NCBI GenBank assembly: GCA_035717485.1
Contig: DASTIQ010000283.1
Span: 2,846 to 66,845, forward strand
Origin: Thermoanaerobaculia bacterium
GTDB taxonomy: Bacteria; Acidobacteriota; Thermoanaerobaculia; UBA5066; DATFVB01
Reading direction: 5' to 3'
DNA length: 64,000 nucleotides
The notes beneath the pieces were generated by a model that was not told where the DNA came from, searched no databases, and worked only from the letters and a program-made list of their open reading frames with translations. The position numbers and the translations under genes are program-made. Shown in pieces: positions 11,382 through 64,000 of this stretch. Positions within the stretch are counted from its first letter, which is position 1. Each line of letters opens with the position of its first letter.

Positions 11382-14276
<2,895 letters not shown>

Positions 14277-14420
14277 CGATTCTTAGCCTATCGCAACGAT
14301 CCCGATTCCCAGGATTCGAATGCATCAGCGGCGCGGGGCGGCGGAAGGTCCGGTAGAATTCCGACCGATTTCCCCGAAGAGCAACGGACGCCCGCGCGAA
14401 GCGGGCACGCAGGAGGAAGG

Positions 14421-17400: not shown

Positions 17401-17846
17401 GGCTCGAAGCGGAGAGATTCCGCAAGATGGTCCGCGCCGAGAACGGGGATGCGGCGCTCGTCGACGCCGCCGACGCGCTCGGAAAGAAGATGCGCGCGGT
17501 CGAGGCGGAGCTGCTGCAGCCGACCATCGCGGAAGAGGACCAGAAGTCGTTCCGCGGTCCGCTCGGCCTGTATCTGAAGTTCATCTGGCTCAACGCCGAG
17601 GCGGCGACCGGCGCCGCCGACGTTTCCGGGAACGCCGATCTCGGGCCGACGCAGCCCGAACGCGACGTCTTCGCGCTTCTCGACGGCCGCCTGAACGACG
17701 CGAGGAAGGAGTTCGAGGAAGTGTTTTCGGCCGACGTCCCGGCATTCAACCGCGCCATGGAAGCGAAGGGATTCGGCGCGATCGTTCCCGTCAAGGAGGT
17801 CCTTCCGGAGTTTCCGCCGGCGAAGGAAAAGAAAGAGGACGAGTAG
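14421..17846 (+). CDS. secreted sortilin/Vps10-type BNR (Asp-box) repeat beta-propeller protein
   Basis: 1141 aa. ATG preceded by AGGAGG. Signal peptide MRRMAAALWLMAAVMVAPGHA. Many Asp-box motifs (SxDxGxTW: STDAGKTW, TTNGGKSW, SRDGGTTW, TTDGGEHW, TRDGGGHW, KTADWGKTW). It is the in-frame C-terminal part of track ORF 12078..17846, whose N-terminal 780 aa are acnA antisense shadow. Confidence 0.8.
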   Translation: MRRMAAALWLMAAVMVAPGHAGTTAAESPGSSEPSSEPKRAFPEEAKKTTSAQPSEEEEKPTPEGLEAEKKAGPFAGLKFRFIGPPGNRVSAVVGVPGDPNVYYAGAASGGVWKSIDGGNEWKPVFDKEDAQSIGAIAIAPSDPNVVWVGTGETFIRSNVSIGDGVYKSTDAGKTWKHMGLEKTGRIGRVIVDPRDPDTVFVAALGTCYGPQPERGVYRTTNGGKSWERVLFVDENTGASDLAMDPKNPRVLFAGTWQIDIKTWGRKSGGPGSGVWVSRDGGTTWKRIKEHGLPDPPLGKIAVGIGTNDPDRVYALIETGDKGSLWRSDDGGNAWRLVNRSRLLNERPHYYTRMLVMPDNANEVYFPSNSMGVTYDGGETADQVDWAGDNHDMWADPKDPSRMMIGSDIGVVISTTRGKKWNWTRLPIAQMYHVATDSRIPYQVYGQMQDGGSMRGPSRNPGGDGIPPALWTTTAGCETGWNTPDPVDPDVVWGGCYAGVVERYDGKTRMSRSVSVWPERTMGANAGEVKLRMNWTFPIAISPHDHNTVYVGSQYVHETTDGGEHWKTISPDLTTNDPSMMGDSGGLTVDNLSVEYAGVVFSIAESPLSKGEIWAGTNDGVVQVTRDGGGHWSNVTPPKAMLPPKGTVGSVEPSSHEKGTCYVSVDLHQVDDRNPFVFKTADWGKTWKAVAGDLPKSPLSYVHVVREDPFRKGMLYAGTENGLWVSFDDGARWRPLQGKLPHAPVSWLTVEPRFHDLVVATYGRGFWILDDVTALERWVEPKGDAPVVLFPSVPAYRFRAVSQPAYAPVGAAHGKNGPDGAFITYWMKKEVPKPKKKDEGEDEIPEKEKPPLVKIRIYDAAGNKVRSLRGSNEKGFNRVDWDLRYDPFREVRLRATPPGNRHVWEEKRFVGKDRRPVLYYGIEDATQGPLVPPGTYTVKLDVDGREYSTPVEVRKDPNSGGTAADVEEGTKFSLAIYRDTNAAAGMINQLEWGRLEAERFRKMVRAENGDAALVDAADALGKKMRAVEAELLQPTIAEEDQKSFRGPLGLYLKFIWLNAEAATGAADVSGNADLGPTQPERDVFALLDGRLNDARKEFEEVFSADVPAFNRAMEAKGFGAIVPVKEVLPEFPPAKEKKEDE

Positions 17847-30038: not shown

Positions 30039-30089
30039 TCTCGCGTTCTCCGAAAGCCGCTATCATCGAGTTTTCGCGAGGAGGCCGCG

Positions 30090-31160
30090 TTGACGTCCGC
30101 CGAGGTCGATGAGAAGCAGGTCCTGGAGGCTCTCCGGACCGTGAAGTTCCCCGGGCTCTCCCGGGACATCGTGTCGTTCGGATTCGTGAAGGATCTCGCG
30201 GTCGGGGGCGGGAACGTCTCGCTCCGCCTCGAGATCACGACCGAGTCCCCCCGCGTCGCCGAGGAGATCAAGCGCGACGCGACCGAGAAGCTCCGGTCGC
30301 TCCCGGGCGTCCAGGCGGTGACGATCGCGCTCGACGCGCGCGCCCCCGGGATGGCCGCCCCGGCGGGGGCGCGGCCGGCGCCGATCCCGTCCGGCGAGCT
30401 CCTGAAGGACGTCCGCTTCAAGGTCGCGGTCGCGTCCGGAAAGGGAGGCGTGGGGAAGTCGACGGTCACCGCGAACCTCGCGCTCGCGCTCACCCGGCTC
30501 GGCTATCGCGTCGGTCTCATGGATTCCGACATCTACGGGCCGTCGCAGCAGATGATGATGGGGATCACCCAGAAGCCGTACGTCAACGAGGAGGACAAGA
30601 TCGTCCCGATCGAGAGCCACGGGGTGAAGGTGATCTCCCTCGGGTTCCTGATGGACGTCGATCAGCCCGTGATCTGGCGCGGCCCCATGGTGATGAAGGC
30701 CGTCGAGCAGTTCCTGCAGGACGTGGCATGGGGAAAGCTCGACTTCCTGCTCGTCGACCTCCCGCCGGGAACCGGAGACGCGCAGCTGACGCTGACGCAG
30801 AAGATCCAGCTCTCGGGCGCCGTGATCGTGACGACGCCGCAGGAGGTGTCGCTGATCGACGCGCGGAAGGGTCTCGCGATGTTCGAGAAGGTCAACGTCC
30901 CGCTCCTCGGGATCGTCGAGAACATGAGCTACTACGAGTGTCCCTCCTGCGGACACCGCGACGAGATCTTCAAGCACGGGGGGGGCAGACGGACCGCGGA
31001 GAAGCTCGGCGTTCCCTTCCTCGGCGAGATCCCGATCGACCCCAAGATCGTCGCCGGGGGAGACGCGGGCACGCCGATCGTCGTCGCGGAGCCGAAGTCC
31101 CGCGCGACCGAGGCGTACATGGCCCTGGCGGACAACATCGCGCGAACCCTGGCGGGGTGA
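30090..31160 (+). CDS. apbC: Mrp/ApbC/NBP35-family Fe-S cluster carrier ATPase
   Basis: 356 aa. TTG start with a GAGGAGG ribosome-binding site. N-terminal DUF59-like domain, P-loop VASGKGGVGKST, CPSCGHRDEIF. Confidence 0.85.
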   Translation: MTSAEVDEKQVLEALRTVKFPGLSRDIVSFGFVKDLAVGGGNVSLRLEITTESPRVAEEIKRDATEKLRSLPGVQAVTIALDARAPGMAAPAGARPAPIPSGELLKDVRFKVAVASGKGGVGKSTVTANLALALTRLGYRVGLMDSDIYGPSQQMMMGITQKPYVNEEDKIVPIESHGVKVISLGFLMDVDQPVIWRGPMVMKAVEQFLQDVAWGKLDFLLVDLPPGTGDAQLTLTQKIQLSGAVIVTTPQEVSLIDARKGLAMFEKVNVPLLGIVENMSYYECPSCGHRDEIFKHGGGRRTAEKLGVPFLGEIPIDPKIVAGGDAGTPIVVAEPKSRATEAYMALADNIARTLAG

Positions 31161-40056: not shown

Positions 40057-41370
40057 TCAGCCGTTCGGCGGGCGATCCGTCCCGCCGGCGTCCGCCTCGC
40101 GCCCCGTGATCAGCCGCGCGCCGCGCTGCCACGTGAGGTAGGCCCACGCCCACTCGAACATGACCAGGAGCCGGTTCCGGAATCCGATCAGGAAGAAGAT
40201 GTGGATCCCGAGCCAGGCCGCCCACGCGAAGAACCCCGAGATCTTCCACCCGCGGATGTCCGCCACGGCCGCGCTCCTGCCGATCGTGGCCAGCGTCCCC
40301 TTGTCGACATAGTGGAACGGGATCGTCGGCCTTCCGGCGATCCGGCGGCGGATCGAGCGGGCCGCGTGGCGCCCCTCCTGCATGGCCGCGGGAGCGAGGC
40401 CGGGAACGGGGCGGCCCTCCTGCTCGACCGCGGCGAGGTCTCCCGCAACGAAGATCTCGGGGTGCCCCGGAACGGAGAGGTCGGGCTCGACCCGGACGCG
40501 TCCCTGCCGGTCGAGCGGAACGCCGAGCGATCTTCCGAGCGGCGAGGCGGCGACTCCGGCGGCCCAGAGCGCGGTGCGAGCGCCGATCCGCTCCGTTCCG
40601 AGCCAGACGGCCTCCTCGTCGATCTTCGTCACGCGGGCTCCCGTGCGGATCGTCACCCCGAGGGATTCCAGCTGCCGCGCCGCCTTCGCCGAGAGCTCGG
40701 GCGGAAAACCGGGAAGGACGCGCTCCGCGGCCTCGACGAGGACGACGGCGGCCTGCGCCGGGTCGATGTCGCGGAAGTCGCGAACGAGCGAGTGGCGGGC
40801 GATTTCCGAGAGCGCCCCGGCGAGCTCGACGCCGGTCGGACCTCCTCCGACGACGACGAACGTGAGGAGCTCCCGGCGGGCGGCGGCATTCGTCTCCCAC
40901 TCCGCGCGCTCGAACGCCAGGAGGACGCGCCGCCGGATTTCGAGCGCATCGTCCACCGTCTTCAACCCCGGCGCGTGGGGACGCCATTCGTCGTGGCCGA
41001 AGTACGAGTCTCCCGCTCCCGACGCCACGATCAGGAAGTCGTAGCCGAGATCGCGCCCGTCGACGCGGAGCCTGCGGCCGGAGGGATCGATCGACGTCAC
41101 TTCGCCGAGAAGGACCGTCGTGTTCTTCCGGGCGCGCACGACGCTCCGGATCGGCGCGGCGATGTCGCTCGGGTTCAACGCGGCGGTCGCGACCTGGTAG
41201 AGGAGCGGCTGGAAGAGATGGTGGTTCCGGCGATCGACGATCGTGAGCCGCACGGGAGCGGCCGCGAGCTCCCGCGCCGCCGCGAGTCCCGCGAATCCTC
41301 CACCGATCAGCACGACGTGCGGGCGGGCGGAATCCGCGGGGGCGCGGCCGGACACGGTCGACGACGTCAC
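40057..41370 (-). CDS. ndh: type II NADH dehydrogenase (NDH-2)
   Basis: About 437 aa. HVVLIGGGFAGL and VVGGGPTGVELAG dinucleotide folds; C-terminal amphipathic membrane anchor. GTG start chosen (the upstream ATG would overlap the divergent gene), so the start is uncertain. Confidence 0.8.
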   Translation of the reverse strand: MTSSTVSGRAPADSARPHVVLIGGGFAGLAAARELAAAPVRLTIVDRRNHHLFQPLLYQVATAALNPSDIAAPIRSVVRARKNTTVLLGEVTSIDPSGRRLRVDGRDLGYDFLIVASGAGDSYFGHDEWRPHAPGLKTVDDALEIRRRVLLAFERAEWETNAAARRELLTFVVVGGGPTGVELAGALSEIARHSLVRDFRDIDPAQAAVVLVEAAERVLPGFPPELSAKAARQLESLGVTIRTGARVTKIDEEAVWLGTERIGARTALWAAGVAASPLGRSLGVPLDRQGRVRVEPDLSVPGHPEIFVAGDLAAVEQEGRPVPGLAPAAMQEGRHAARSIRRRIAGRPTIPFHYVDKGTLATIGRSAAVADIRGWKISGFFAWAAWLGIHIFFLIGFRNRLLVMFEWAWAYLTWQRGARLITGREADAGGTDRPPNG

Positions 41371-41425
41371 GGCGGCAGAATATCGCCGTCGCGCGATACA
41401 CTCTCCGGGTTCGGAAGGAGGCGGC

Positions 41426-42445
41426 ATGCGCGGCGCGCGTCTTCTCGTTCTCACCCTGGTCGCCGGGCTCCTGTCCGCGGCGACGCCGGCGGCTCCCGGA
41501 GGGAAGGCGATCCCGCTTCCCGAAGGCTCGGGCGGCATCGGCCTCGACGACATGGGATGGGCGCCTTCGCTCTCCCGCATCGTCGTTCCGGCGGGGCGGA
41601 CGGGCCGCATCGACCTGATCGATCCCGCCGGGGGCCCGATGATCGAGATCGGCGGGTTCCGCGTGTCGGCGGCCGGGGCCGGCCACGGCGAGGGGACCAC
41701 GTCCGCCTCCGAGGGAGCCGGCCTGCTGTTCGCGACCGACCGGACCGCGGGCGAGGTCGTCGCCGTCGACGAGAAGGAACGGAAGATCGTCTCGCGCGCG
41801 AAGCTCGCCGGAGGACCCGACTACGTGCGCTGGGTCGAGGCCACCCACGAGATCTGGGTGACCGAACCCGACGGCGAGAAGATCGAGATCTTCCGGCTCG
41901 GCTCCGGCTTCCCGCCCACCATCGAGCACGTCGGTTTCGTTTCCGTTCCCGGCGGTCCGGAGTCGCTCGCGATCGACGGAGCGCGGGGAAGGGCGTACGC
42001 GAATCTCTGGAAGGCGGAAACCGTGGCGATCGACCTGAAAGCGCGGAGCGTCGCCGCGCGGTGGAAGAACGGCTGCGGCGGCGCCCGCGGCCTCGCCCTC
42101 GATCGCCGGCGCGGGTTCCTCTTCGCCGCGTGCACCGAGGGGCGCGTCGTCTCCCTCGACGTCGAAAACGGAAAGACCCTGTCGTCGGTCGCCGCGCCGA
42201 ACGGCATCGACATCATCGACTACAACTCCGCGCTCGGCCATCTCTACGTCCCGGGAGCCAAGGACGCGCAGCTCGCGGTCGTTTCGGTCTCGAAGTCGGG
42301 AGAGCTCGCGGCTCTCGGGCGTTTCCCGACGGCCCCGCGCGCGCATTGCGTGGCGTCCGAGCCGGGCGGCGGGATCTACGTCTGCGACCCGCCGCACGGC
42401 GCCGTCATCGTCCTCCGGGACACGTTCCCGGGAGGAACGCCGTAA
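41426..42445 (+). CDS. secreted YVTN/NHL-like beta-propeller repeat protein
   Basis: 339 aa. GGAAGGAGG ribosome-binding site. Signal peptide MRGARLLVLTLVAGLLSAA. Confidence 0.65.
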   Translation: MRGARLLVLTLVAGLLSAATPAAPGGKAIPLPEGSGGIGLDDMGWAPSLSRIVVPAGRTGRIDLIDPAGGPMIEIGGFRVSAAGAGHGEGTTSASEGAGLLFATDRTAGEVVAVDEKERKIVSRAKLAGGPDYVRWVEATHEIWVTEPDGEKIEIFRLGSGFPPTIEHVGFVSVPGGPESLAIDGARGRAYANLWKAETVAIDLKARSVAARWKNGCGGARGLALDRRRGFLFAACTEGRVVSLDVENGKTLSSVAAPNGIDIIDYNSALGHLYVPGAKDAQLAVVSVSKSGELAALGRFPTAPRAHCVASEPGGGIYVCDPPHGAVIVLRDTFPGGTP

Positions 42446-48477: not shown

Positions 48478-48765
48478 TTATTTCTTGGCGCCCTTCTTCG
48501 CGGCGGGCTTGACCTCGACGCTCGTCGCGGTCATCCGGTACTCGATCGTCACTTTGTCGCCGACCTTCACGTCGGCGGGCATCTTCGTCGAGCCGTCGCG
48601 CGCGATCTCCCAGCGATCCTTCCCCTTCTGGACGGTGATCATCGTCGGGCTCACCTCGAGCACGGGACCCGTGACCTGGTAGGTCTTCGCCGTCTCCGCC
48701 GAGGCGGCGAGCGGGAAGAGCGAGGCGACCGAGACGGCGGCGGCGAGGAGCAGCTTCGATTTCAT
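48478..48765 (-). CDS. small secreted hypothetical protein (paralogous in pattern to CDS 1171..1452)
   Basis: 95 aa. AAAGGAGAA ribosome-binding site. Signal peptide MKSKLLLAAAVSVASLFPLAASA, then TYQVTGPVLEV...KVGDKVTIEY...VEV. Confidence 0.6.
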   Translation of the reverse strand: MKSKLLLAAAVSVASLFPLAASAETAKTYQVTGPVLEVSPTMITVQKGKDRWEIARDGSTKMPADVKVGDKVTIEYRMTATSVEVKPAAKKGAKK

Positions 48766-48886
48766 GGGTTCTCCTTTCGTCCGCGATTCTACGTCCAGGC
48801 GCCCCTTTCCGCGGATTCGTCCGGCCGGGGTACGCTCTCTCCGACGAGGTGCGCCCGCCGGCCGGAACTCCGCAGCCGGCCGGGAT

Positions 48887-51817
48887 ATGCTTCTCGGCGC
48901 CGCCGACGTGAGACCTCCCACGAGAAACCGCACGCGCCCGAGTCCGGTCGACGCCCGCGGTCTCGCCGAAGCGCTTCGCCGGAGCGTCCGCGGCGACGTC
49001 CGCTTCGACGCCGGCTCGCGCGCCCTCTACGCGACCGACGCGTCCAACTACCGCCAGGTGCCGATCGGCGTCGTGGTGCCTCTCGATGCGGAGGACGTCA
49101 TGGCGGCGCTCGCCGCGGCGCGCGCGTTCGGCGCGCCGGTGCTTTCCCGGGGAGGCGGGACGAGCCTCGCGGGCCAGTGCTGCAACGTCGCGGTGGTCCT
49201 CGACTTCTCCCGCCATCTCGACCGCGTGCTCGAGGTCGATCCCCGCCGCCGGCTCGCCCGCGTCCAGCCGGGATGCGTGCTCGACACGCTGCGCGACGCG
49301 GCGGCGCCCCACGGGCTGACGTTCGGCCCCGATCCCGCCACCCACGCGTACAACACGCTCGGGGGAATGATCGGAAACGATTCGTGCGGCGTGCACTCGG
49401 TGATGGCCGCGTTCGAAGGAGACGGCGGAACGACCGCGGCCAACATCGAGTCGCTCGAGGTCGCGACGTACGGGGGCGAACGCCTGCGCGTGGGGCGGAC
49501 GACCGACGCGGAGCTCGCGGCGATCGTGGCCGCCGGAGGACCGCGCGGCGCGATCTACGCGGCGCTCCGCGATCTCCGCGACCGCTACGCGGACGAGATC
49601 CGCGCCCGTTATCCTCGGATCCCGCGGCGCATCTCGGGTTTCAACCTGCCGCAGCTCCTTCCGGAGAACGGTTTCCACGTCGCGCGGGCGCTCGTGGGAT
49701 CCGAAGGCACGTGCGTGACGGTGCTCGAGGCGACCGCGAACCTCGTTCCGGCGCCCCCCGCCCGATCCCTCGTCGTGCTCGGCTTCGAGGACGTCTTCGC
49801 CGCGGCCGACGCGGTTCCGTCGATCATGGCGCATCGGCCGATCGGCCTCGAGGGAGTCGACGACCGGCTCGTCGCGGACATGGCGGCGATCGGCCTGCAC
49901 CGCGACGCTCTCGGGCTGCTTCCGCGCGGCCGCGGCTTCCTGCTCGTCGAGTTCGGCGGAGCGACCCGCGCCGAGTCGGACGCGAGGGCCGCGGCGCTCG
50001 CCGCGGCGATGGCCGGGGCGACGGCCGGCCACCGGCTCTTCGCGGACGCGGACGACGAACGGCGCCTCTGGCTCGTGCGCGAATCGGGGCTCGGCGCGAC
50101 CGCGCACGTTCCCGGAAAGTCGCTCACGTGGGAGGGATGGGAGGACTCGGCCGTTCCGCCGGAGAGGCTCGGGGCCTACCTTCGCGACCTGCGGAGGCTC
50201 CTCGACGAACACGGCTACCGCGGCGACTTCTACGGCCATTTCGGAGAGGGATGCGTCCACACGCGGATCGACTTCGATCTCGAATCGCCGGCCGGCGTCG
50301 ACCGGTTCCGGCGATTCCTCGCGGACGCCGCGCGGCTGGTCGTGTCCTTCGGCGGATCGCTCTCGGGTGAGCACGGCGACGGGCAGTCGCGCGCCGAGCT
50401 GCTCCCCCTGATGTTCGGCGAGCGGCTCGTGACCGCCTTCCGCGAGTTCAAGGCGATCTGGGACCCCGACGGAAGGATGAACCCGGGAAAGGTCGTCGAC
50501 GCTCACGGCGCGACCGAGAACCTGCGGCTGGCCGGCGGTCCGCTCGCGGCGCCCTCGCCGACCGCGTTCCGATACCCGGAGGACGGAGGGAGCTTTCCCC
50601 GCGCCATGCTGCGATGCGTCGGCGTGGGGGCCTGCCGCCGCACCGAGGGCGGAACGATGTGCCCGAGCTTCATGGTGACCCGGGAGGAGAAGCATTCGAC
50701 GCGCGGCCGGGCGCGCCTCCTCTTCGAGATGCTGAAGGGGGAGGCGCTCACCGCGGGATGGAGGAGCCGGGAAGTGCGCGAGGCGCTCGACCTCTGCCTT
50801 TCCTGCAAGGCGTGCAAGAGCGAGTGTCCCGTCCAGGTCGACATGGCGACGTACAAGGCCGAGTTCCTCTCGCACCATTACGCGCGGCGCCTTCGTCCGC
50901 GGGCCGCCTGGTCGATGGGTCTCTTTCCCTGGATCGCGCGGGCGGCGTCGATGGCGCCCGGCGCGGCGAATTTCCTCACGCATGCGCCGCTCCTCTCGGG
51001 CGTCGCGAAGTTCGCGGCGGGCATCGCGCCCGAACGGGAGGTGCCGCGCTTCGCGCCGAAAACCTTCGTCTCGGAGTTCCGGCGGGAGGGGGAAGACGCG
51101 CGCGGCGTCCCGGTCCTCCTCTTTCCCGACACCTTCACGAATCACCTGGAGCCGCGAATCGCTCACGCGGCGGTGTCGGTCCTTCGGCGCGCCGGGTTCC
51201 GCGTCGAGATTCCGCCGCGGCCGCTCTGCTGCGGCCGGCCGCTCTACGATTTCGGCATGCTGGATCTCGCGCGCCGGCAGCTGCGGACGATCCTCTCCGC
51301 GCTCGCCCCCGCCCTCGCCGCGGGGACGCCGGTCGTCGTGCTCGAGCCGGGCTGCGCCTCGGTGTTCCGCGACGAGCTGCGGAGCCTGTTTCCCGACGAC
51401 GGCGCCGCGCGGCGGCTCTCGGAGACGACCTTTCTCCTCTCGGAGTTCCTCGCGCGGGCTCCCGGTTACCGGCCGCCGACGCTCCGGGGGCGCGCTCTCG
51501 TGCAGCCGCACTGCCATCATCGCGCGGCGACCGGATTCGCGGAAGAGCGGACCCTGCTCGAGGCGGCCGGGCTCTCGGTCGACGTGCCGGACGCCGGCTG
51601 CTGCGGCATGGCCGGAGCGTTCGGGTTCGAGCGCGGCGAGCGTCATCGGGTCTCCGTCGCCGTCGGCGAGCGGGCTCTCCTTCCGATCGTCCGCGCGGCG
51701 TCGCCCGACACTCTCGTCCTGGCCGACGGGTTTTCCTGCCGCGAGCAGATCGCGCAGGGGACCGGGCGCCGGCCGAAGCACCTCGCGGAGGTCCTCGGGC
51801 CGGGAGAGCCGGCATGA
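48887..51817 (+). CDS. YdiJ-like FAD-binding / Fe-S (CCG-domain) oxidoreductase (D-2-hydroxyacid dehydrogenase family)
   Basis: About 976 aa. FAD-binding PCMH domain (GGGTSLAGQ), 4Fe-4S motif CLSCKACKSECP, two CCG motifs (LCCGRPL, GCCGMAG). The start at MLLGAAD is uncertain; the track ORF begins at 48764. Confidence 0.8.
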   Translation: MLLGAADVRPPTRNRTRPSPVDARGLAEALRRSVRGDVRFDAGSRALYATDASNYRQVPIGVVVPLDAEDVMAALAAARAFGAPVLSRGGGTSLAGQCCNVAVVLDFSRHLDRVLEVDPRRRLARVQPGCVLDTLRDAAAPHGLTFGPDPATHAYNTLGGMIGNDSCGVHSVMAAFEGDGGTTAANIESLEVATYGGERLRVGRTTDAELAAIVAAGGPRGAIYAALRDLRDRYADEIRARYPRIPRRISGFNLPQLLPENGFHVARALVGSEGTCVTVLEATANLVPAPPARSLVVLGFEDVFAAADAVPSIMAHRPIGLEGVDDRLVADMAAIGLHRDALGLLPRGRGFLLVEFGGATRAESDARAAALAAAMAGATAGHRLFADADDERRLWLVRESGLGATAHVPGKSLTWEGWEDSAVPPERLGAYLRDLRRLLDEHGYRGDFYGHFGEGCVHTRIDFDLESPAGVDRFRRFLADAARLVVSFGGSLSGEHGDGQSRAELLPLMFGERLVTAFREFKAIWDPDGRMNPGKVVDAHGATENLRLAGGPLAAPSPTAFRYPEDGGSFPRAMLRCVGVGACRRTEGGTMCPSFMVTREEKHSTRGRARLLFEMLKGEALTAGWRSREVREALDLCLSCKACKSECPVQVDMATYKAEFLSHHYARRLRPRAAWSMGLFPWIARAASMAPGAANFLTHAPLLSGVAKFAAGIAPEREVPRFAPKTFVSEFRREGEDARGVPVLLFPDTFTNHLEPRIAHAAVSVLRRAGFRVEIPPRPLCCGRPLYDFGMLDLARRQLRTILSALAPALAAGTPVVVLEPGCASVFRDELRSLFPDDGAARRLSETTFLLSEFLARAPGYRPPTLRGRALVQPHCHHRAATGFAEERTLLEAAGLSVDVPDAGCCGMAGAFGFERGERHRVSVAVGERALLPIVRAASPDTLVLADGFSCREQIAQGTGRRPKHLAEVLGPGEPA

Positions 51818-58654: not shown

Positions 58655-60388
58655 CTACGAAGAGATCTTCGAAAGTCGCTGCAGGAACCGCTCCGGCGGT
58701 TCGAAACCGACGAGACGCGTCCCCGGGATTTCCCGCCCCTGCGCGTCCAGGAAGATGACCGTCGGCATCCCCTGGACGTTGAACTTGGTCGACAGCGCGA
58801 TCGCTTCGGGCGAGTCCTGCCGCGTCATGTCGGCCTTGAAGAGGGCCGTTCCCGCGAGCGCCCGCCGCACCCGGGGGTCGGCGAAGGTCTCGTCCTCGAG
58901 CTCGTGGCACGGCGCGCACCAATCGGCGGAGAAGTCGATCATCGCCGGACGCGTCGCCTGAGCGATCCGCGAAGCATCGTAGGGGACGAACGGAAGGGGC
59001 TGACCCCCCTGAGGGCGCGCGAAGAACGCGGCCGCGCCGAGGAAGACGATCGCCGCGCTGCCCACGGCCGCCCTTGCCATGGGCGGGGCCTTGGAGCGAA
59101 GCGCGGAGAACAGGAGATAGAGGGCTCCCAGGCCGAGCACGGCGGGAACGGCCCACCGGCGCGCCGCGTCCGGGAGGAGGAATCTTCCGAAATACGCGGC
59201 CATGGCGAGCAGCACGAATCCGAAGACCTTCTTGATCTCGACCATCCAGGCGCCGGCGCGAGGAAGCTTCGTGAGGGCGCCGGAGAAAGACGCGAGGAAG
59301 AGGTAGGGGAGGCCGAGCCCCACCGAGAGGACGAAGAACATGACGAAACCGAGAACCGGATCGCGCCGGGCCGCGACGAACGTGAGGAGGCCGAGAACGA
59401 ACGGGCCGAGGCAGGGCGCGGCGACGACTCCGACGAGGAGGCCCATCCCGAATGCGCCGCCGAAACCCTTCTTCGCGCCGGCGCGGTCCATCACGAAGCG
59501 CGGCGGATTGATGTCGTAGAGCCCGAACATCGAGAGCGACAGGCCGACGAAGACCAGTGCGATGCCGCCGAGCACCCAGGGGGACTGGAGCGCGGAGCCG
59601 AAGAGCTTCCCGGACAAGGCGGCGACGACGCCGAGCGTCGAGTACGTGAGGGCCATTCCGAGCACGTAGGTCGCGGCGAGGCCCACGGGCTTCCCGGTCT
59701 TTCCCCGCGATTGCCCCCCGAAGAAGCCGATCGTGATCGGGATGATCGGGTAGACGCAGGGCGTGAGATTCAGGGCGAGGCCGCCCAGGAACAGGACGAG
59801 GAATCCGACGAGCCAGCCGCGTCGGGAAAGCACCGCCCCGAAGTCTCCGGCCGCGGCCGTGCCGGACCCGGCGCCGGGACCGGCGTCGGTGGCCGCGGCG
59901 GCGGCGCCGGAGCCTCCCGAGACCGCGACCTCGGCGTGGAACGGGACGCTCGCGGGAGCGAGGCACTGCTGGTCGTTGCACGGCTGGAAGGCGAGAGAGC
60001 CCTGGATGGAGTGCGCTCCGGCCGCGACGGACCGCGGCGCGGTCCCGCTCGCGGTGATCGAGAACTTTCCCGCGTAGACCGCGAGCGGCTTCTCCGAGAA
60101 CGAGAACTTGACCGTCTGCGCCGCGGGGTAGATGAAATCCGAGAACGTCAGGCCGGCGGCGTCCGTGACCTTCGCTTCCGTCGGAATCAGGTAGTCCTCC
60201 GACGGCTTGTGGGCGTTGACGTGCCATCCCGGCGCGAGCTCCGCGTCGATCTTCAGCGTGATGGCGCCGCCGGGAGCGACGGCGGAGGGAGACGCCGACG
60301 CCGTCACCTTCAGGAGCGACGCCGACCGCTGCCCCCACCCGGAGGCCGGGACGAGCAGGAGAAGCGCCGCGAGGACCTTCTTCGTCAT
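58655..60388 (-). CDS. dsbD: thiol:disulfide interchange protein DsbD
   Basis: 577 aa with a signal peptide. N-terminal DsbD-alpha domain (CNDQQC), CcdA-like TM core (LTPCVYP, AAPCLGPF), C-terminal thioredoxin domain with WCAPC. Confidence 0.88.
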   Translation of the reverse strand: MTKKVLAALLLLVPASGWGQRSASLLKVTASASPSAVAPGGAITLKIDAELAPGWHVNAHKPSEDYLIPTEAKVTDAAGLTFSDFIYPAAQTVKFSFSEKPLAVYAGKFSITASGTAPRSVAAGAHSIQGSLAFQPCNDQQCLAPASVPFHAEVAVSGGSGAAAAATDAGPGAGSGTAAAGDFGAVLSRRGWLVGFLVLFLGGLALNLTPCVYPIIPITIGFFGGQSRGKTGKPVGLAATYVLGMALTYSTLGVVAALSGKLFGSALQSPWVLGGIALVFVGLSLSMFGLYDINPPRFVMDRAGAKKGFGGAFGMGLLVGVVAAPCLGPFVLGLLTFVAARRDPVLGFVMFFVLSVGLGLPYLFLASFSGALTKLPRAGAWMVEIKKVFGFVLLAMAAYFGRFLLPDAARRWAVPAVLGLGALYLLFSALRSKAPPMARAAVGSAAIVFLGAAAFFARPQGGQPLPFVPYDASRIAQATRPAMIDFSADWCAPCHELEDETFADPRVRRALAGTALFKADMTRQDSPEAIALSTKFNVQGMPTVIFLDAQGREIPGTRLVGFEPPERFLQRLSKISS

Positions 60389-61299
60389 CGCGGCGCCGGC
60401 CCCTCGGCGGGGATCGAGGTCAGCAGCTGTCGCGCGTTGTCGGCGAGCTTGCTCTCGGGATGTTCGCGAAGGAATGCGGAGATCGTCCTCCGCGCTTCCT
60501 CGCGGTGCCCCTCGGCGAGCTCGACCGCGCCGCGCGAGAGCTCGGCCTCCTCCCGCGCCGCCGGATTCCGGGAAGTCTTGAGGACCTCGTCGAGCGTCGC
60601 CCGCGCCTCGTCGAACCGTTTCATGCGGTACTGCGCCGTCGCCAGCGAGGTCAGCGCGATGTCGCGGGTCGCCGGATCCGCGGTCTTCGACCGGCCCGCC
60701 CGCTCGAGCCGCGGCGCCGCTTCCTCCGGGGCCATGCGGCGGAGCAGCTCCATGCCCAGGGCGAGCTCTTCCTTCGGATCATCGCGGAACTCCGGCTCGT
60801 GGATCATCTTCACGTGAAGCTTGTCCCATTCCGCCATCGAGCTGCGGACGTGACGGTAGAACTCGGTGGCGTTGTCGAACCCGTTGACGCGGAAGATGAG
60901 CACGCCCCCCGGAGAGAGGATCAGGACCGCGGGCGATTCGTTGATTCCGTAGCGCTCGGCGAGCGGCGCGGCTTCCGCGCTCCCGGGAGCGAGCCGCACG
61001 GGGACCATCCGGAGGAGCATCATCTCGAAATTCACCGCCGGGTAGAGGAGGCCCTGCATCCGGGCGCAGTTCCCGCACTTCTCCTCGGAGAATTCAACGT
61101 ACACGACCCGCCCTTCCCGATCGGCCTTCTCCCGCGCCTTCGCGAAGGTGTCTTCCCACTCCGCTTTTCCGGGACCGGAGGGAAGCCGTTCGGAGGTGGC
61201 CGGCGGGACCGGAGCGGACGACGGCGGAGCCTCGGTCGCGGCGGCCAGGCCCGCGGCGGCGAGGAGCAGGATGGCGGCGACGGTCGTCGATCGGATCAC
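60385..61299 (-). CDS. periplasmic thioredoxin-fold (CxxC) protein with a C-terminal TPR-like helical domain
   Basis: About 304 aa. GTG start preceded by GGAGGA. Signal peptide; CGNC in the thioredoxin-like N-domain. The stop overlaps the dsbD ATG (ATGA). Confidence 0.65.
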   Translation of the reverse strand: MIRSTTVAAILLLAAAGLAAATEAPPSSAPVPPATSERLPSGPGKAEWEDTFAKAREKADREGRVVYVEFSEEKCGNCARMQGLLYPAVNFEMMLLRMVPVRLAPGSAEAAPLAERYGINESPAVLILSPGGVLIFRVNGFDNATEFYRHVRSSMAEWDKLHVKMIHEPEFRDDPKEELALGMELLRRMAPEEAAPRLERAGRSKTADPATRDIALTSLATAQYRMKRFDEARATLDEVLKTSRNPAAREEAELSRGAVELAEGHREEARRTISAFLREHPESKLADNARQLLTSIPAEGPAPR

Positions 61300-61427
61300 G
61301 AAGTCCTCCGTGGCCCGGAGAACGCGGCGGCAATGGGCGGAATTCCCCATTCGCGAAGCATAGCGAAATCGCGACGGCTTCATTGACGCCGCAGGACCCC
61401 TCCTGCTATTTTCGCGTGCTCCGACCT

Positions 61428-61503
61428 GCCCAGGTAGCTCAGTCGGTAGAGCGAGGGACTGAAAATCCCTGCGTCGGCGGTTCAATTCCGTCCCTGGGCA
61501 CCA
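61428..61503 (+). tRNA. tRNA-Phe (anticodon GAA)
   Basis: GCCCAGGTAGCTCAGTCGGTAGAGCGAGGGACTGAAAATCCCTGCGTCGGCGGTTCAATTCCGTCCCTGGGCACCA. Full cloverleaf, anticodon loop CTGAAAA, encoded CCA; near-identical to bacterial tRNA-Phe. Confidence 0.95.
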
Positions 61504-61846
61504 TCCGCTAACCCAAGAGGAACGCGTCGGCTCGCGGCTCAGACCTCACCCGAGGTGATCAAATCGGCGTTTGCCACGAGTTCCCTCCTGAACACTCGAG
61601 AAGCCCGCCGAGCTCTCCTCTTCGGTCAAAGGAGCGTCAAACGCGAGGACGAGAGCATAGGGGGAGAGTGGCCTCGTGTTTTAGTTTGGCGTGCGGCGGC
61701 GCAGCTCGCTCGGCTTCGGTTGGAGCCGGTCCGAGCGGGAGCCTCGCGGTCCTCACCTACCTTCCCGCCACAACTCGGGCTTTCGAGAACAACGTCGTCC
61801 GGTGGGCAAGATGTCCTTCTCGCTGAATTCCCGACGGCGAAGAAAG

Positions 61847-62737
61847 TCAACGATCCTGCCTCGTAAGGTCAGCCCCGAGAGATTTGACGGTCGCCTCGGC
61901 CCGCTTCGTGCCCGCGCGGACTGCTTCTGCCTGCAAGGCTTCCCCGTAATTCTTAGCGGTCTTCCGGAGGCGTTCCCTTCCCCCGCGATCGATGCGGCCG
62001 AGAAGCCGAAGAAGCCCGTCGAGGATCGTCAGCGGGTGGGGCGGACAACCGGGGATGTAGAGATCGACCTGAATGTCCGCCGGGACCCCGCCGTGTGAGG
62101 CCGCCGCGCCGGCGAACGGGCCGCCACTGATCGCGCAGGCCCCAACCGCAATCACGATCTTCGGCTCAGGAACCGCCGCGTAAGTCTCTCGAAGTGCGTA
62201 CTCCATGTTGGTCGTCACGGGACCCGTGACGACGATGCCGTCGGCATGGCGCGGCGAGGCTACGAATTGGATTCCGAAACGGCTGAGGTCGAAGACCACG
62301 TTGCTCATCGCCGTCAGCTCCGCCGCGCAGCCGCTGCAATCTCCAGCCGAAACATGGCGAAGCTTCAAGGAACGGCCGAAGAGTCTTCGCATCTCCTCTT
62401 CAAGCGCGGTGGCGAGTCGTGCTTGCCTCCCGGAGACGACGAGGTCAGCACGGGAACGTGCGGCGAGGCGGTGGTCCGGCGTGTAGACGATCGCGCCCTC
62501 CGGGCACGCCTCCTGGCATACCGTGCAGAACAGGCAGGCCCCGAGGTCGATGCGAAGCGGATCTGTCGCGATCGCCAGAGTCGGACACGCGTCCGCGCAG
62601 GCGCGGCAAGCTTCCCGGCACCTCGATTCGTCTAGGACCGGGCGACCGCGAAAGCGCGCGGGCAGCTGCCCCGACTCGTTGGGGAATCTCGTCGTCCGGT
62701 GCCCCTGCCGCACGCGCGCTTTCAGCAGGTCAAGCAT
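61847..62737 (-). CDS. fusion of a 2x[4Fe-4S] ferredoxin (HycF/NuoI-like) and a group-4 hydrogenase small subunit (HycG/NuoB-like)
   Basis: 296 aa. N-terminal CREACRACADACP and CLFCTVCQEACP. C-terminal NuoB-fold with hydrogenase-type cluster ligands DCSGC...GACAISGG...PGCPP. Confidence 0.8.
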   Translation of the reverse strand: MLDLLKARVRQGHRTTRFPNESGQLPARFRGRPVLDESRCREACRACADACPTLAIATDPLRIDLGACLFCTVCQEACPEGAIVYTPDHRLAARSRADLVVSGRQARLATALEEEMRRLFGRSLKLRHVSAGDCSGCAAELTAMSNVVFDLSRFGIQFVASPRHADGIVVTGPVTTNMEYALRETYAAVPEPKIVIAVGACAISGGPFAGAAASHGGVPADIQVDLYIPGCPPHPLTILDGLLRLLGRIDRGGRERLRKTAKNYGEALQAEAVRAGTKRAEATVKSLGADLTRQDR

Positions 62738-62747
62738 CTTTGCCTCG

Positions 62748-64000
62748 TCATAGATCGTGGCCTGCGTAGGAGAGATTGAAGCTCTTGTTGCAGAGAGGGA
62801 AGTCCGAGATCTGATTGCCGCGCAGGGCCATCGTCAGCCCGAACCAATTATGAAAAGAGGGATCGACGATCTTGTAGCCGGCAAGCTGGCCATCTGCGGA
62901 GGTGACGGCCACGTGCACGATTTCGCCTCGCCAGCCCTCGACCATCGACACGGCGAGGCTCTCGGGCGCCAGGGAGCTCGGGGAACCGCCCGGACCCCCG
63001 CTGACATCCAGCCCGGGGATGTCCACGGACAGGGACTCCCGGGGAAGCTCGTTGATCTGCTCACGCAGGAACGTATTCGAACGCTGCGTCTCGAGCCAGC
63101 GAACGAGAGCACGCGCCATCACGTCCCCCGACTCGACGAGCGCCACCGGGATGTGAGCGAAACGGAAGATGCCGAACGGGTGGTCGCGCCGTACGTCTCG
63201 GTCGCAGCCGCTGGCGCGAGCGACCGGTCCGACCAGACCGAGCGCTTCCGCCACCTCGCGCGTCACGACTCCGGTGTGCTCGAACCGCGATCCCACGGTC
63301 GGCGAGTTGAACGTCACTTGTGCCGTGTCCCGAAGATCACGCTCCGCCTTAGCCAGGCGAGCGAGGAAACCCTCGCGCTGCTCCGCTGACAGCCCAAAGC
63401 GAATACCGCCCAGATTGACGAGTCCCCGCCCGAAGCGGTTGCCGGAGAGCTCCATCAGCAAGTTCAGGAACTCGCCTCGAAGCCGTCCAAACCAGGAAGC
63501 GCCGGCCAGATAACCAATGTCGTTGCAGAGCGCTCCCAGGTCGCCGACGTGGTTGGCAAGCCGCTCCAGCTCCAGCGCGATCCCCCGCACGGCTTGCGCG
63601 TAGAGCGGGAGCTCGACGCCTGCCAGCGCCTCGATAGCCGCGCAGTAAGCGAGCGCGTGGCCCACGGCCGTGTCTCCCGCGATCGACTCCGCGACCGCCA
63701 GGCGCCGGGCCGGCGACGACTTGAGAAGCAGGGCTTCCGCGCCCCGATGCTGGTAGCCGAGCTGAATCTCCAGGTGATGAACGGTCTCCCCGGAGCACTG
63801 GAAGCGGAAGTGCCCGGGCTCGATGATGCCCGCATGGACGGGACCGACGGCGACCTCGTGAATACCTGAGCCTTCGAGGCGGAAAAATGGATGTGCTGGC
63901 GAGCTCACGCCGTCGTTGCCCGGCCCCGCCTCGAGATCGGCATGTCGGCGCAGGGCTTTCAACCAGGGATGGCCGTCGGGGCAGATGCCGTGGTCTTCGA
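62748..64000 (-). CDS. group-4 [NiFe]-hydrogenase large-subunit homolog (HycE/NuoD-like) lacking Ni-binding cysteines; 5' part runs off the right edge
   Basis: GPVHAGIIEPGHFRF...LGYQHRG NuoD/HycE fold. AGDT replaces RxCGxC; the C-terminus is DFPLCNKSF rather than DPCxxC. The reading frame stays open to position 64000, so the true start is outside the window. Confidence 0.75.
   Translation of the reverse strand, partial: EDHGICPDGHPWLKALRRHADLEAGPGNDGVSSPAHPFFRLEGSGIHEVAVGPVHAGIIEPGHFRFQCSGETVHHLEIQLGYQHRGAEALLLKSSPARRLAVAESIAGDTAVGHALAYCAAIEALAGVELPLYAQAVRGIALELERLANHVGDLGALCNDIGYLAGASWFGRLRGEFLNLLMELSGNRFGRGLVNLGGIRFGLSAEQREGFLARLAKAERDLRDTAQVTFNSPTVGSRFEHTGVVTREVAEALGLVGPVARASGCDRDVRRDHPFGIFRFAHIPVALVESGDVMARALVRWLETQRSNTFLREQINELPRESLSVDIPGLDVSGGPGGSPSSLAPESLAVSMVEGWRGEIVHVAVTSADGQLAGYKIVDPSFHNWFGLTMALRGNQISDFPLCNKSFNLSYAGHDL

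Follow-up and report, generated by a model that had tools for sequence, protein, structure and literature searches.

The ehrL and ehrS genes of a Thermoanaerobaculia bacterium: a large subunit without nickel-iron ligands and a fused ferredoxin-small subunit

Closest described systems

Ehr complexes entered the literature in 2005, and genome papers mention them routinely. The locus considered here lies at the end of a 64,000-nucleotide stretch of DNA from a Thermoanaerobaculia bacterium (contig DASTIQ010000283.1; referred to as the window; G+C content 69%) and is confirmed as an Ehr locus: it carries the soluble-arm genes ehrL and ehrS of a member of this known class, at the probable 3′ end of an ehrABCDLS operon. 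Operons of this class have been published as ehrABCDLS for Geobacter sulfurreducens (GSU0739-0745) and Methylacidiphilum and as hyfBCEFGI for Nitrospira (PMC7894505, PMC6688271, 10.1101/144600). Shared by these complexes and the loci orthologous to the present one are a NuoL/HyfB-like EhrA, a NuoH-like EhrB, a HyfE-like EhrC, a second antiporter-like subunit EhrD, an EhrL devoid of the nickel-iron cysteines, and EhrS (PMC7894505, PMC6688271, PMC10284858), while membership of the Geobacter and Nitrospira complexes in the same subfamily is deduced from composition and motif loss. The function of Ehr is called unknown throughout (PMC6349859, PMC10284858, PMC10432482, 10.1101/765248, PMC7304191); literature searches returned no functional or structural study of any Ehr, and no Ehr structure has been solved.

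The E. coli hydrogenase-4 and formate hydrogenlyase systems (Hyf/Hyc; PDB 7z0s) provide the best solved relative of both window proteins. Shared with them are the gene order large subunit, ferredoxin, small subunit, the NuoC-like N-terminal domain of the large subunit, the CxxC-type proximal cluster, the Glu-Pro β1-β2 loop and, in the orthologs of the locus, membrane subunits of HyfB/C/E/F type. Unlike Hyf/Hyc, the Ehr large subunit has neither [NiFe] ligands nor a C-terminal extension for HycI/HyfK-type processing, and the counterparts of HycF and HycG are fused into one polypeptide. Antiporter-like subunits number two here, compared with three in Hyf and one in Hyc. Furthermore, no HycB/FdhF partner or hyp genes lie near the ehr operon in the loci surveyed, which are 82 in number and comprise two loci of relatives, L001 and L002, together with the 80 best genome loci from a scan of one genome per species.

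The Q-module of complex I (NuoB, NuoCD, NuoI), considered together with its ferredoxin-dependent 11-subunit relatives, resembles Ehr in fold and in being free of nickel. It also resembles Ehr in its relay, where two NuoI clusters and one NuoB cluster lead to a pocket at the NuoD/NuoB/NuoH interface, and in its antiporter-like pumping subunits. In contrast to complex I, the locus lacks Tyr87 and His38 (Nqo4 numbering), carries CxxC instead of tandem CC and scores far below the cutoffs of the NuoD and NuoB equivalog models, and its orthologs have no separate NuoA/J/K genes and no NuoEFG. Another relative, the sulfane reductase Mbs, has an Mrp-type multi-subunit membrane arm, a large subunit with partly retained cysteines and an incompletely ligated proximal cluster. 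Like Ehr, Mbs/Mbx of Thermococcales (PDB 6u8y) is hydrogenase-derived and has given up H2 chemistry for another acceptor, a precedent from which it follows that the pocket can be repurposed. However, it is much more distant (1.6e-17 for MbsL, 1.2e-20 for MbsJ), and the membrane arm here is of Hyf type, as read from orthologs. An Mbs-style open-coordination catalytic cluster is not indicated, because the four proximal-cluster cysteines are all retained.

Gene layout and class assignment

Two closely spaced minus-strand genes, ehrL and ehrS, fill the final 2.15 kb of the window:

62748..64000, past the window end, minus strand: ehrL, large subunit, with a NuoC-like N-terminal domain and a HycE/NuoD-like domain; frame open to the window end
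62748-62750, minus strand: stop codon of ehrL, whose visible part is 416 of about 522 codons
62738..62747, minus strand: ehrL-ehrS spacer of 10 nt (cgaggcaaag) with a GAGG Shine-Dalgarno-like element, read from the sequence
61847..62737, minus strand: ehrS, a complete open reading frame (ORF) of 296 aa, with a NuoI/HycF-type di-cluster ferredoxin domain fused to a HycG/MbhJ/NuoB-type small subunit

The two genes are translationally adjacent and form one operon. The position of the module and the minus-strand layout of both genes were as an earlier note on this DNA had given them when the ORF coordinates were checked, and the order large subunit, ferredoxin, small subunit that it had pointed out matches hycE-F-G and hyfG-H-I. 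Its placement of the module in the published Ehr class was likewise borne out, given a large subunit without [NiFe] cysteines, a proximal cluster that is kept, and Hyf-type partners in the orthologs. Every Ehr-defining feature readable from the window is present, and the membrane partners are found in orthologous loci. Judged by these sequence features, the complex is neither a hydrogenase nor complex I.

EhrL: a hydrogenase-type fold without nickel-iron ligands

EhrL matches the Pfam family Complex1_49kDa (6.4e-34), with a sub-threshold match to NiFeSe_Hases. Its scores against the NCBIfam NuoD equivalogs, 176.6 bits for PRK06075 (cutoff 360) and 136.5 for TIGR01962 (cutoff 459), fall far below the cutoffs, so EhrL is not NuoD. 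In a search of all PDB sequences, the best solved relative was HycE of E. coli formate hydrogenlyase (7z0s_E, 6.2e-42, over ortholog residues 88-518), with further matches to MbhL (2.5e-38), T. thermophilus Nqo4 (5e-28) and MbsL. The ortholog in question, P0001, is a 522-aa protein from an NCBI metagenome assembly to which EhrL is 97% identical; full-length features and residue numbering are taken from it, including the N-terminus absent from the window, which is a NuoC-like domain (PF00329). Judged by the E-values, chance resemblance can be set aside for EhrL, for EhrS and for the ferredoxin domain of the latter.

The AlphaFold2 model of P0001, with a predicted local distance difference test score (pLDDT) of 70.9 and a predicted template modelling score of 0.76, returned HycE as the top Foldseek hit (template modelling score 0.74, with 25% identity in the structural alignment) and E. 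coli NuoCD as the next (0.73). The HycE/NuoD fold of EhrL, which the earlier note had proposed, is confirmed by these matches. The model is confident on the helical core; pLDDT is below 50 at residues 122-189, 351-397 and 489-522 (window ~63747-63947, 63123-63263 and 62748-62846). It is these loops, together with the C-terminus, that would form the lining of the former [NiFe] pocket and touch EhrS and EhrB. In sequence they are among the most conserved parts.

The elements of the former active site are as follows:

63807..63845, minus strand: hydrogenase-type β1-β2 loop GPVHAGIIEPGHF, with the Glu-Pro of group-4 hydrogenases kept
63657..63689, minus strand: equivalent of the L1 ligand motif, ESIAGDTAVGH, in which AGDT (63669-63680) replaces CGxC
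62778..62804, minus strand: DFPLCNKSF, a conserved segment just upstream of the L2 equivalent, aligned with HycE DAPLIIGSL
62751..62777, minus strand: true equivalent of L2 (DPCxxCxxR), NLSYAGHDL followed by the stop, with Cys3 replaced by Ser and Cys4 by Gly

When EhrL is aligned with HycE by HMMER, ESIAGDTAVGHALAYC pairs with HycE DRVCGICGFAHSTAYT at the L1 site, where AGDT stands in place of CGIC, just as had been noted before. At the L2 site SDFPLCNKSFNLSYA pairs with HycE SDAPLIIGSLDPCYS, and NLSYAG takes the place of DPCYSC. The earlier view of the C-terminal motif therefore stands in part only: no ligand cysteine is left there, but the segment that had been taken for the DPCxxC equivalent, DFPLCNKSF, is not that equivalent, which is NLSYAG instead. 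In Cys-bearing relatives of [NiFe] type, the counterpart of DFPLCNKSF reads DFPLINKSF. A canonical RxCGxC...DPCxxC pair, the finding that would have overturned the earlier reading, was absent after proper alignment both from the window part and from the N-terminus supplied by P0001. EhrL thus lacks all four [NiFe] cysteine ligands.

The protein ends in HDL-stop at the position of the processed C-terminus of hydrogenase large subunits, and because it ends there it has no C-terminal extension for a maturation protease. What has been kept is the β1-β2 loop with its Glu-Pro, as seen in the alignments to HycE, MbhL and Nqo4; this loop is identical or nearly so in 80 of the 82 loci.

EhrS: a NuoI/HycF-type ferredoxin fused to a small subunit

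The domains and ligand motifs of EhrS are the following:

62423..62737, minus strand: NuoI/HycF-like domain, aa 1-105, with two [4Fe-4S] motifs
62582-62620, minus strand: first [4Fe-4S] motif, CREACRACADACP, of the form CxxxCxxCxxxCP
62501-62536, minus strand: second [4Fe-4S] motif, CLFCTVCQEACP
61970..62398, minus strand: small-subunit domain, aa ~114-256, with four proximal-cluster cysteines
62327-62338, 62123-62143 and 62039-62053, minus strand: C-S-G-C, GACAISG and PGCPP, the proximal-cluster ligands
61850..61969, minus strand: charged C-terminal tail of 40 residues, variable and unconserved among relatives

Residues 1-105 align over their full length with HycF (4.6e-13) and NuoI (4.1e-13), and the alignment takes in the N-terminal YP..LP.RFRG segment that distinguishes NuoI/HycF from generic ferredoxins. 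All eight cysteines of the domain coincide with cluster ligands, in agreement with the N-terminal fusion to a HycF-like 2x[4Fe-4S] ferredoxin described before. This fusion is present in most of the 82 related loci, many of which have EhrS ORFs of about 250-270 aa; with the L001 ortholog, 266 aa align. The spacing of the first motif is unusual in having a one-residue insertion relative to NuoI/HycF, and the same spacing recurs in the related loci whose motifs were printed.

The small-subunit part matches Pfam Oxidored_q6 (1.5e-30), and residues 114-251 align with MbhJ (5.2e-31) and HycG (3e-28) as the best solved relatives, and with the more distant MbsJ. GDCSGCAAE falls on the CNGC of MbhJ and HycG, whereas NuoB has CC at that point, as does mitochondrial PSST (ACCAVE). 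Numbered from the ATG at 62737, C134-x2-C137, C201 and C231 align with the MbhJ and HycG ligands, so that the small subunit has, as the earlier note had it, all proximal-cluster ligands in an arrangement of CxxC and not NuoB CC type. All 12 Fe-S ligand cysteines of EhrS are thereby retained. Against the best NuoB equivalog models, EhrS scored 103-108 bits (cutoffs 281-312), while the NuoB subfamily model PRK06411 was just reached (116.8 against a cutoff of 116).

The operon in orthologous loci

The window stops within ehrL, so that the genes for the membrane subunits and the regulator fall outside it and, for the window genome, are read from orthologous loci. An exact-sequence look-up with EhrS matched no recorded contig, and the operon was pieced together from the contig of the 97%-identical P0001 instead. 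The contig with P0001, L001, matches window 61856-64000 only, at 94% DNA identity, and encodes upstream of ehrL two Proton_antipo_M proteins of 479 and 660 aa, a NuoH-family protein, a 217-aa membrane protein and three genes that combine HTH_17 with PTS_EIIA_2. The same arrangement is found in L002, an 81%-identical homolog on a 277-kb contig, where a gene for pyruvate:ferredoxin oxidoreductase (PFOR) lies directly downstream. NCBIfam models identify the membrane proteins as hydrogenase-4 subunit B (637 bits), a NuoH/HycD-like protein, HyfE (81 bits) and hydrogenase-4 subunit F (340 bits). The shared arrangement runs from a regulator with a helix-turn-helix (HTH) domain and an enzyme IIA (EIIA) domain of the phosphotransferase system (PTS), through hyfB-, hycD-, hyfE- and hyfF-like genes, to ehrL and ehrS. 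The order EhrA-EhrB-EhrC-EhrD-EhrL-EhrS is constant in those of the 82 loci whose fetched sequence extends far enough upstream, and these loci span at least 10 phyla.

No nuoA, nuoE, nuoF, nuoG, nuoJ or nuoK gene was found among the neighbours in the orthologous loci, all of Hyf type; an ordinary nuoA-N locus, which would have disproved the earlier reading, is not what the hyfB/hycD/hyfE/hyfF-like neighbours form. EhrA keeps the Glu of transmembrane helix 5, the Lys of helices 7 and 8 and the Glu of helix 12; EhrD keeps the Glu of helix 5, the Lys of helix 7 and the Glu of helix 12; and EhrB keeps an acidic loop between helices 5 and 6. The antiporter-like subunits thus retain the charged residues that ion translocation needs.

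When all non-operon ORFs within flanks of ±10 kb were clustered, no family, whether partner dehydrogenase or hyp genes, occurred in more than 7 of the 82 neighbourhoods. The commonest non-operon family was a response regulator, in 7 loci, and the top clusters were generic: regulators, ABC ATPases, acyl-CoA ligases and alcohol dehydrogenases. No recurrent formate dehydrogenase, HycB-like protein, carbon monoxide dehydrogenase, NuoEFG or Hyp set was found beside the operon in these loci from many phyla, and no hyp domain in the 20 large window ORFs scanned with Pfam. The evidence points to a self-contained seven-gene unit with no dedicated partner enzyme.

The single conserved companion of the operon is the regulator gene, in which an excisionase-type HTH (HTH_17) is fused to a PtsN-like PTS_EIIA_2 domain (L001:947-2460, L002:3499-4981 and matching positions in L003-L082). 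It lies directly upstream of ehrA in 39 of the 52 loci with enough flank and inside the cluster in 8 more, and it occurs in two or three copies in close relatives. The phospho-His motif G[DN]GIAIPH is intact and conserved in these proteins. Expression of ehr is probably under the control of this upstream regulator. The literature searched held no mention of an EIIA-Ehr link, and the Ehr literature no description of the linked HTH-EIIA gene, of the ferredoxin-small-subunit fusion, or of the EhrL signature set out below.

Some loci depart from the common layout. A second, convergent partial ehr cluster is found at L007:13274-16366, and further variants occur at L024, L025, L027, L030 and L062: several Elusimicrobia loci and Anaeromyxobacter soli (L062) carry an extra ehrA upstream of the HTH-EIIA gene. 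The extra copies recall ehrA-1 and ehrA-2 of Geobacter.

Family breadth, signature and selection

In the scan of one genome per species, at least 578 species from many phyla have a relative. The 80 best loci come from Thermoanaerobaculia and other Acidobacteriota, Myxococcota (including the cultured Anaeromyxobacter soli SG29), Eisenbacteria, Elusimicrobia, Planctomycetota, Verrucomicrobiota, Omnitrophota, Zixibacteria, Binatia and others. When 1.84 billion cluster representatives were searched exhaustively with HMMER, 854 clusters at 50% identity matched with E<1e-30; their members bear names that are uninformative or contradictory ('hydrogenase', 'NADH dehydrogenase subunit', 'hypothetical').

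Of the 245 homologs in which both motifs are covered, 239 lack the CCCC pattern and 6 keep it. Among 119 divergent Ni-free representatives, Gly214 is found in 113, Asp215 in 111, Ser or Thr at 216 in 99 and Ser516 in 110, while Tyr517 is kept in 105, Gly519 in 113, Asp521 in 116 and the terminal Leu in 101. From these counts, the family signature is G-D-[ST] plus S-Y-x-G-x-D-L-stop. The six Cys-bearing relatives, 36-41% identical, show ERxCGxC...NKSFELCYSCxDR, carry Val or Ala at the position of Asp215 and end in Arg. By this comparison, the Asp of AGDT is a family-specific gain. A new Cys-based site in EhrL was considered and rejected: C174 and C509 are present in no more than about 60% of the divergent representatives, and C371 is confined to close relatives.

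The six Cys-bearing sequences group together as a single clade in a rough neighbour-joining tree of the representatives. With midpoint rooting, this clade falls inside the Ni-free radiation; the placement is distrusted, and no claim is made on single or multiple loss of the ligands. An alignment of 42 sequences contains 116 invariant columns, and the ratio of nonsynonymous to synonymous substitution rates (dN/dS) for the two window genes is 0.18 and 0.20 against the L001 orthologs and 0.135 and 0.12 against those of L003. The genes ehrL and ehrS are under purifying selection and are functional, not relics.

Proposed function and its alternatives

The complex is probably a ferredoxin-linked, ion-translocating oxidoreductase, built like hydrogenase-4/formate hydrogenlyase and like complex I minus its NADH module, and not a hydrogenase. 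In this scheme, a low-potential donor, most probably soluble reduced ferredoxin, would feed both [4Fe-4S] clusters in the NuoI/HycF-like part of EhrS, from which electrons would pass to the CxxC-type proximal [4Fe-4S] cluster on the same polypeptide. They would then reach an acceptor in the remodelled EhrL pocket, at the interface with EhrS and the NuoH-like EhrB, where the four Ni-Fe cysteines have given way to conserved Ala/Ser-Gly-Asp-Thr/Ser and Ser-Tyr-x-Gly. The resulting change in redox state or protonation may drive H+ or Na+ through the antiporter-like EhrA (HyfB-like) and EhrD (HyfF-like). Soluble reduced ferredoxin would be the most economical donor, because no partner enzyme accompanies the operon and the entry domain is of NuoI/HycF type; the PFOR beside the operon in L002 was counted in its favour.

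Of the acceptor and function readings, that of the membrane quinone pool, with a non-canonical mode of binding, was ranked first, with low confidence. In favour of quinone, the type-II NADH dehydrogenase gene in the window indicates that the host has such a pool, and the presence of two pumping modules points to a larger driving force than proton reduction would supply. Several observations weigh against this assignment or the scheme around it. In the HMMER alignment to 2fug_4, the Gly of AGDT takes the place of Nqo4 Tyr87, and an Ile that of His38; the proximal cluster has the low-potential, hydrogenase-type CxxC motif and not the CC of cluster N2. Other Ehr-type complexes, of this or another subfamily, are reported from lineages said to lack quinone biosynthesis (PMC6349859). 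No pocket geometry can be derived from the model, because pLDDT is below 50 exactly in the pocket-building segments. The presence of the membrane subunits and the regulator is extrapolated from orthologs, as the window ends inside ehrL, and no biochemical datum is reported for any Ehr (PMC10284858, PMC10432482, 10.1101/765248).

A bolder version, which is doubtful at present, sees the Ehr pocket as a third, metal-free catalytic solution next to the Ni-Fe site and the Tyr/His quinone site. Here the newly acquired, nearly invariant Asp of G-D-[ST], Ser-Tyr-x-Gly and the free C-terminal carboxylate would make the protonation of an acceptor, or simply the loading of protons, depend on reduction of the proximal cluster, and ions would be pumped as a result, with the whole unit switched by the nitrogen-PTS via the HTH-EIIA regulator.

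Other functions have to be weighed against a ferredoxin-linked oxidoreductase. The redox arm could instead be a docking or electron-relay module for a dehydrogenase encoded elsewhere, for example formate dehydrogenase, so that formate or another substrate would reduce the acceptor. In formate hydrogenlyase, the closest solved relative, HycF takes electrons from HycB-FdhF. Ehr subunits of Geobacter were most abundant on formate (PMC7894505), and a formate dehydrogenase-Ehr complex has been proposed for Margulisbacteria and Saganbacteria (PMC6349859). However, no formate dehydrogenase, HycB-like or NuoEFG-like gene recurs beside the operon in the 82 loci, and with its seven genes the operon is self-contained; such a docking role is considered unlikely. 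Reverse operation, in which the membrane potential pushes quinol electrons uphill to ferredoxin as a biosynthetic reductant, is a role suggested for Ech-type and complex-I-like enzymes of certain autotrophs and nitrifiers, and the architecture is reversible in principle, as in Ech and complex I. The hydrogenase-type CxxC motif would suit chemistry at the level of ferredoxin, and Ehr is found in aerobic nitrifiers and methanotrophs, which require reduced ferredoxin but have no obvious source of it (PMC10284858, PMC10432482, PMC6688271). Nevertheless, the sequence gives no indication of direction, most hosts in this subfamily are anaerobes or facultative anaerobes and make reduced ferredoxin (as with the PFOR beside the L002 operon), and the missing quinone ligands count here as well, which leaves reversal a rather unlikely option.

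A role as a redox-gated or redox-independent cation or proton transporter in pH or ion homeostasis, with the Fe-S arm as a sensor and no terminal substrate, is more improbable still. The former [NiFe] pocket holds only small polar and acidic residues with no obvious cofactor ligands, and a PtsN-like regulator is linked to the operon; PtsN controls K+ transport in E. coli. In Methylacidiphilum, ehrABCDLS is listed under pH homeostasis (PMC6688271). Against such a role, the strong purifying selection that keeps twelve Fe-S cysteines, the Glu-Pro loop and a NuoI-type entry domain across phyla is easier to reconcile with electron throughput than with sensing alone. That the genes are the decaying, non-functional remnant of a group-4 [NiFe] hydrogenase might be argued from the loss of all catalytic cysteines and from a 2026 paper on Geobacter evolution that calls Ehr 'nonfunctional' and its mutations drift (PMC13194489). 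This is hardly credible in view of dN/dS values of 0.12-0.20, intact ORFs, replacement residues (G-D-[ST], S-Y-x-G-x-D-L-stop) that are themselves conserved across 119 divergent representatives, a gene order fixed in at least 10 phyla and the detection of all subunits as proteins in Geobacter (PMC7894505). A genuine [NiFe] hydrogenase-4 or second formate hydrogenlyase, or the ordinary nuoB and nuoCD of complex I, has just as little probability. Homolog annotations such as 'Ni,Fe-hydrogenase III large subunit', 'hydrogenase' and 'NADH-quinone oxidoreductase subunit C' speak for it, but the L1 and L2 cysteines, Tyr87 and His38 are all absent, CxxC stands in place of CC, scores lie far under the NuoD and NuoB equivalog cutoffs, and the neighbours are of Hyf type. 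By the features tested, a hydrogenase, an ordinary complex I and a dead relic are excluded.

Surroundings of the locus

As the earlier note had observed, the module adjoins a tRNA gene on one side and runs off the window end on the other:

61428-61503, plus strand: tRNA-Phe(GAA)

No tRNA lies nearby in any of the six closest relatives, and for this reason the adjacency is taken to be incidental and strain-specific; the tRNA as an integration landmark was rejected on the same ground. Synteny with the 94%-identical L001 stops 9 nt past the ehrS stop (window 61504-61856; L001 from 9926). Past this breakpoint, the window leads to tRNA-Phe and thioredoxin/DsbD genes, and L001 to small ORFs and MobA-like, XdhC and molybdenum-hydroxylase genes. 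Terminator, promoter and Rfam scans of 61300-64000 returned only the tRNA and, upstream of it, a promoter-like and hairpin site; they recognised no terminator 3′ of ehrS in that interval.

Next to the tRNA, a gene for a thioredoxin-like/TPR protein occupies about 60385-61300 on the minus strand; because the longest ORF for this protein runs into the tRNA-Phe gene, translation must in fact begin further downstream. It is adjoined by a DsbD gene (58655-60388, minus strand; DsbD_N, DsbD_TM and thioredoxin domains). Further away, a type-II NADH dehydrogenase is encoded at 40060-41820 on the minus strand (Pyr_redox_2 and NDH2_C), from which a membrane quinone pool in the organism follows. At 48683-51814 on the plus strand, a 1044-aa FAD-linked oxidase (FAD_binding_4 and FAD-oxidase_C) is fused to a 4Fe-4S dicluster and a CCG domain; the protein looks like an enzyme of the D-lactate/glycolate dehydrogenase kind and could feed a membrane electron-transport chain. 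An Fe-S cluster carrier ATPase of Mrp/ApbC/NUBPL type (30039-31157, plus strand; ParA 2e-104 and FeS_assembly_P) is probably a housekeeping protein; in eukaryotes, the homolog loads complex I with Fe-S clusters. A very long ORF at 12045-17843 on the plus strand, of 1933 codons from stop to stop, has a Sortilin/Vps10 (BNR-type) repeat as its sole match, and because a 966-codon ORF with high G+C at third codon positions overlaps it on the opposite strand (11385-14282), one of the two must be spurious.

Implications

To a specialist the locus itself is unsurprising, and it holds nothing categorically new. Its interest lies in the family, since Ehr complexes stand evolutionarily between membrane hydrogenases and complex I and are very widespread in ecologically important groups, among them Acidobacteriota, Myxococcota, Planctomycetota, nitrifiers, methanotrophs and gut Bacteroidales. 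The premise of a 'nonfunctional' Ehr (PMC13194489) is incompatible with the family-wide conservation and the dN/dS of 0.12-0.20 reported here. Three handles on the family emerge. The sharp sequence signature, including the gained Asp, separates the Ni-free members from their Cys-bearing relatives; there is evidence for a self-contained seven-gene unit with no dedicated partner enzyme; and the conserved gene for a PtsN-like transcription factor suggests when the complex is expressed.

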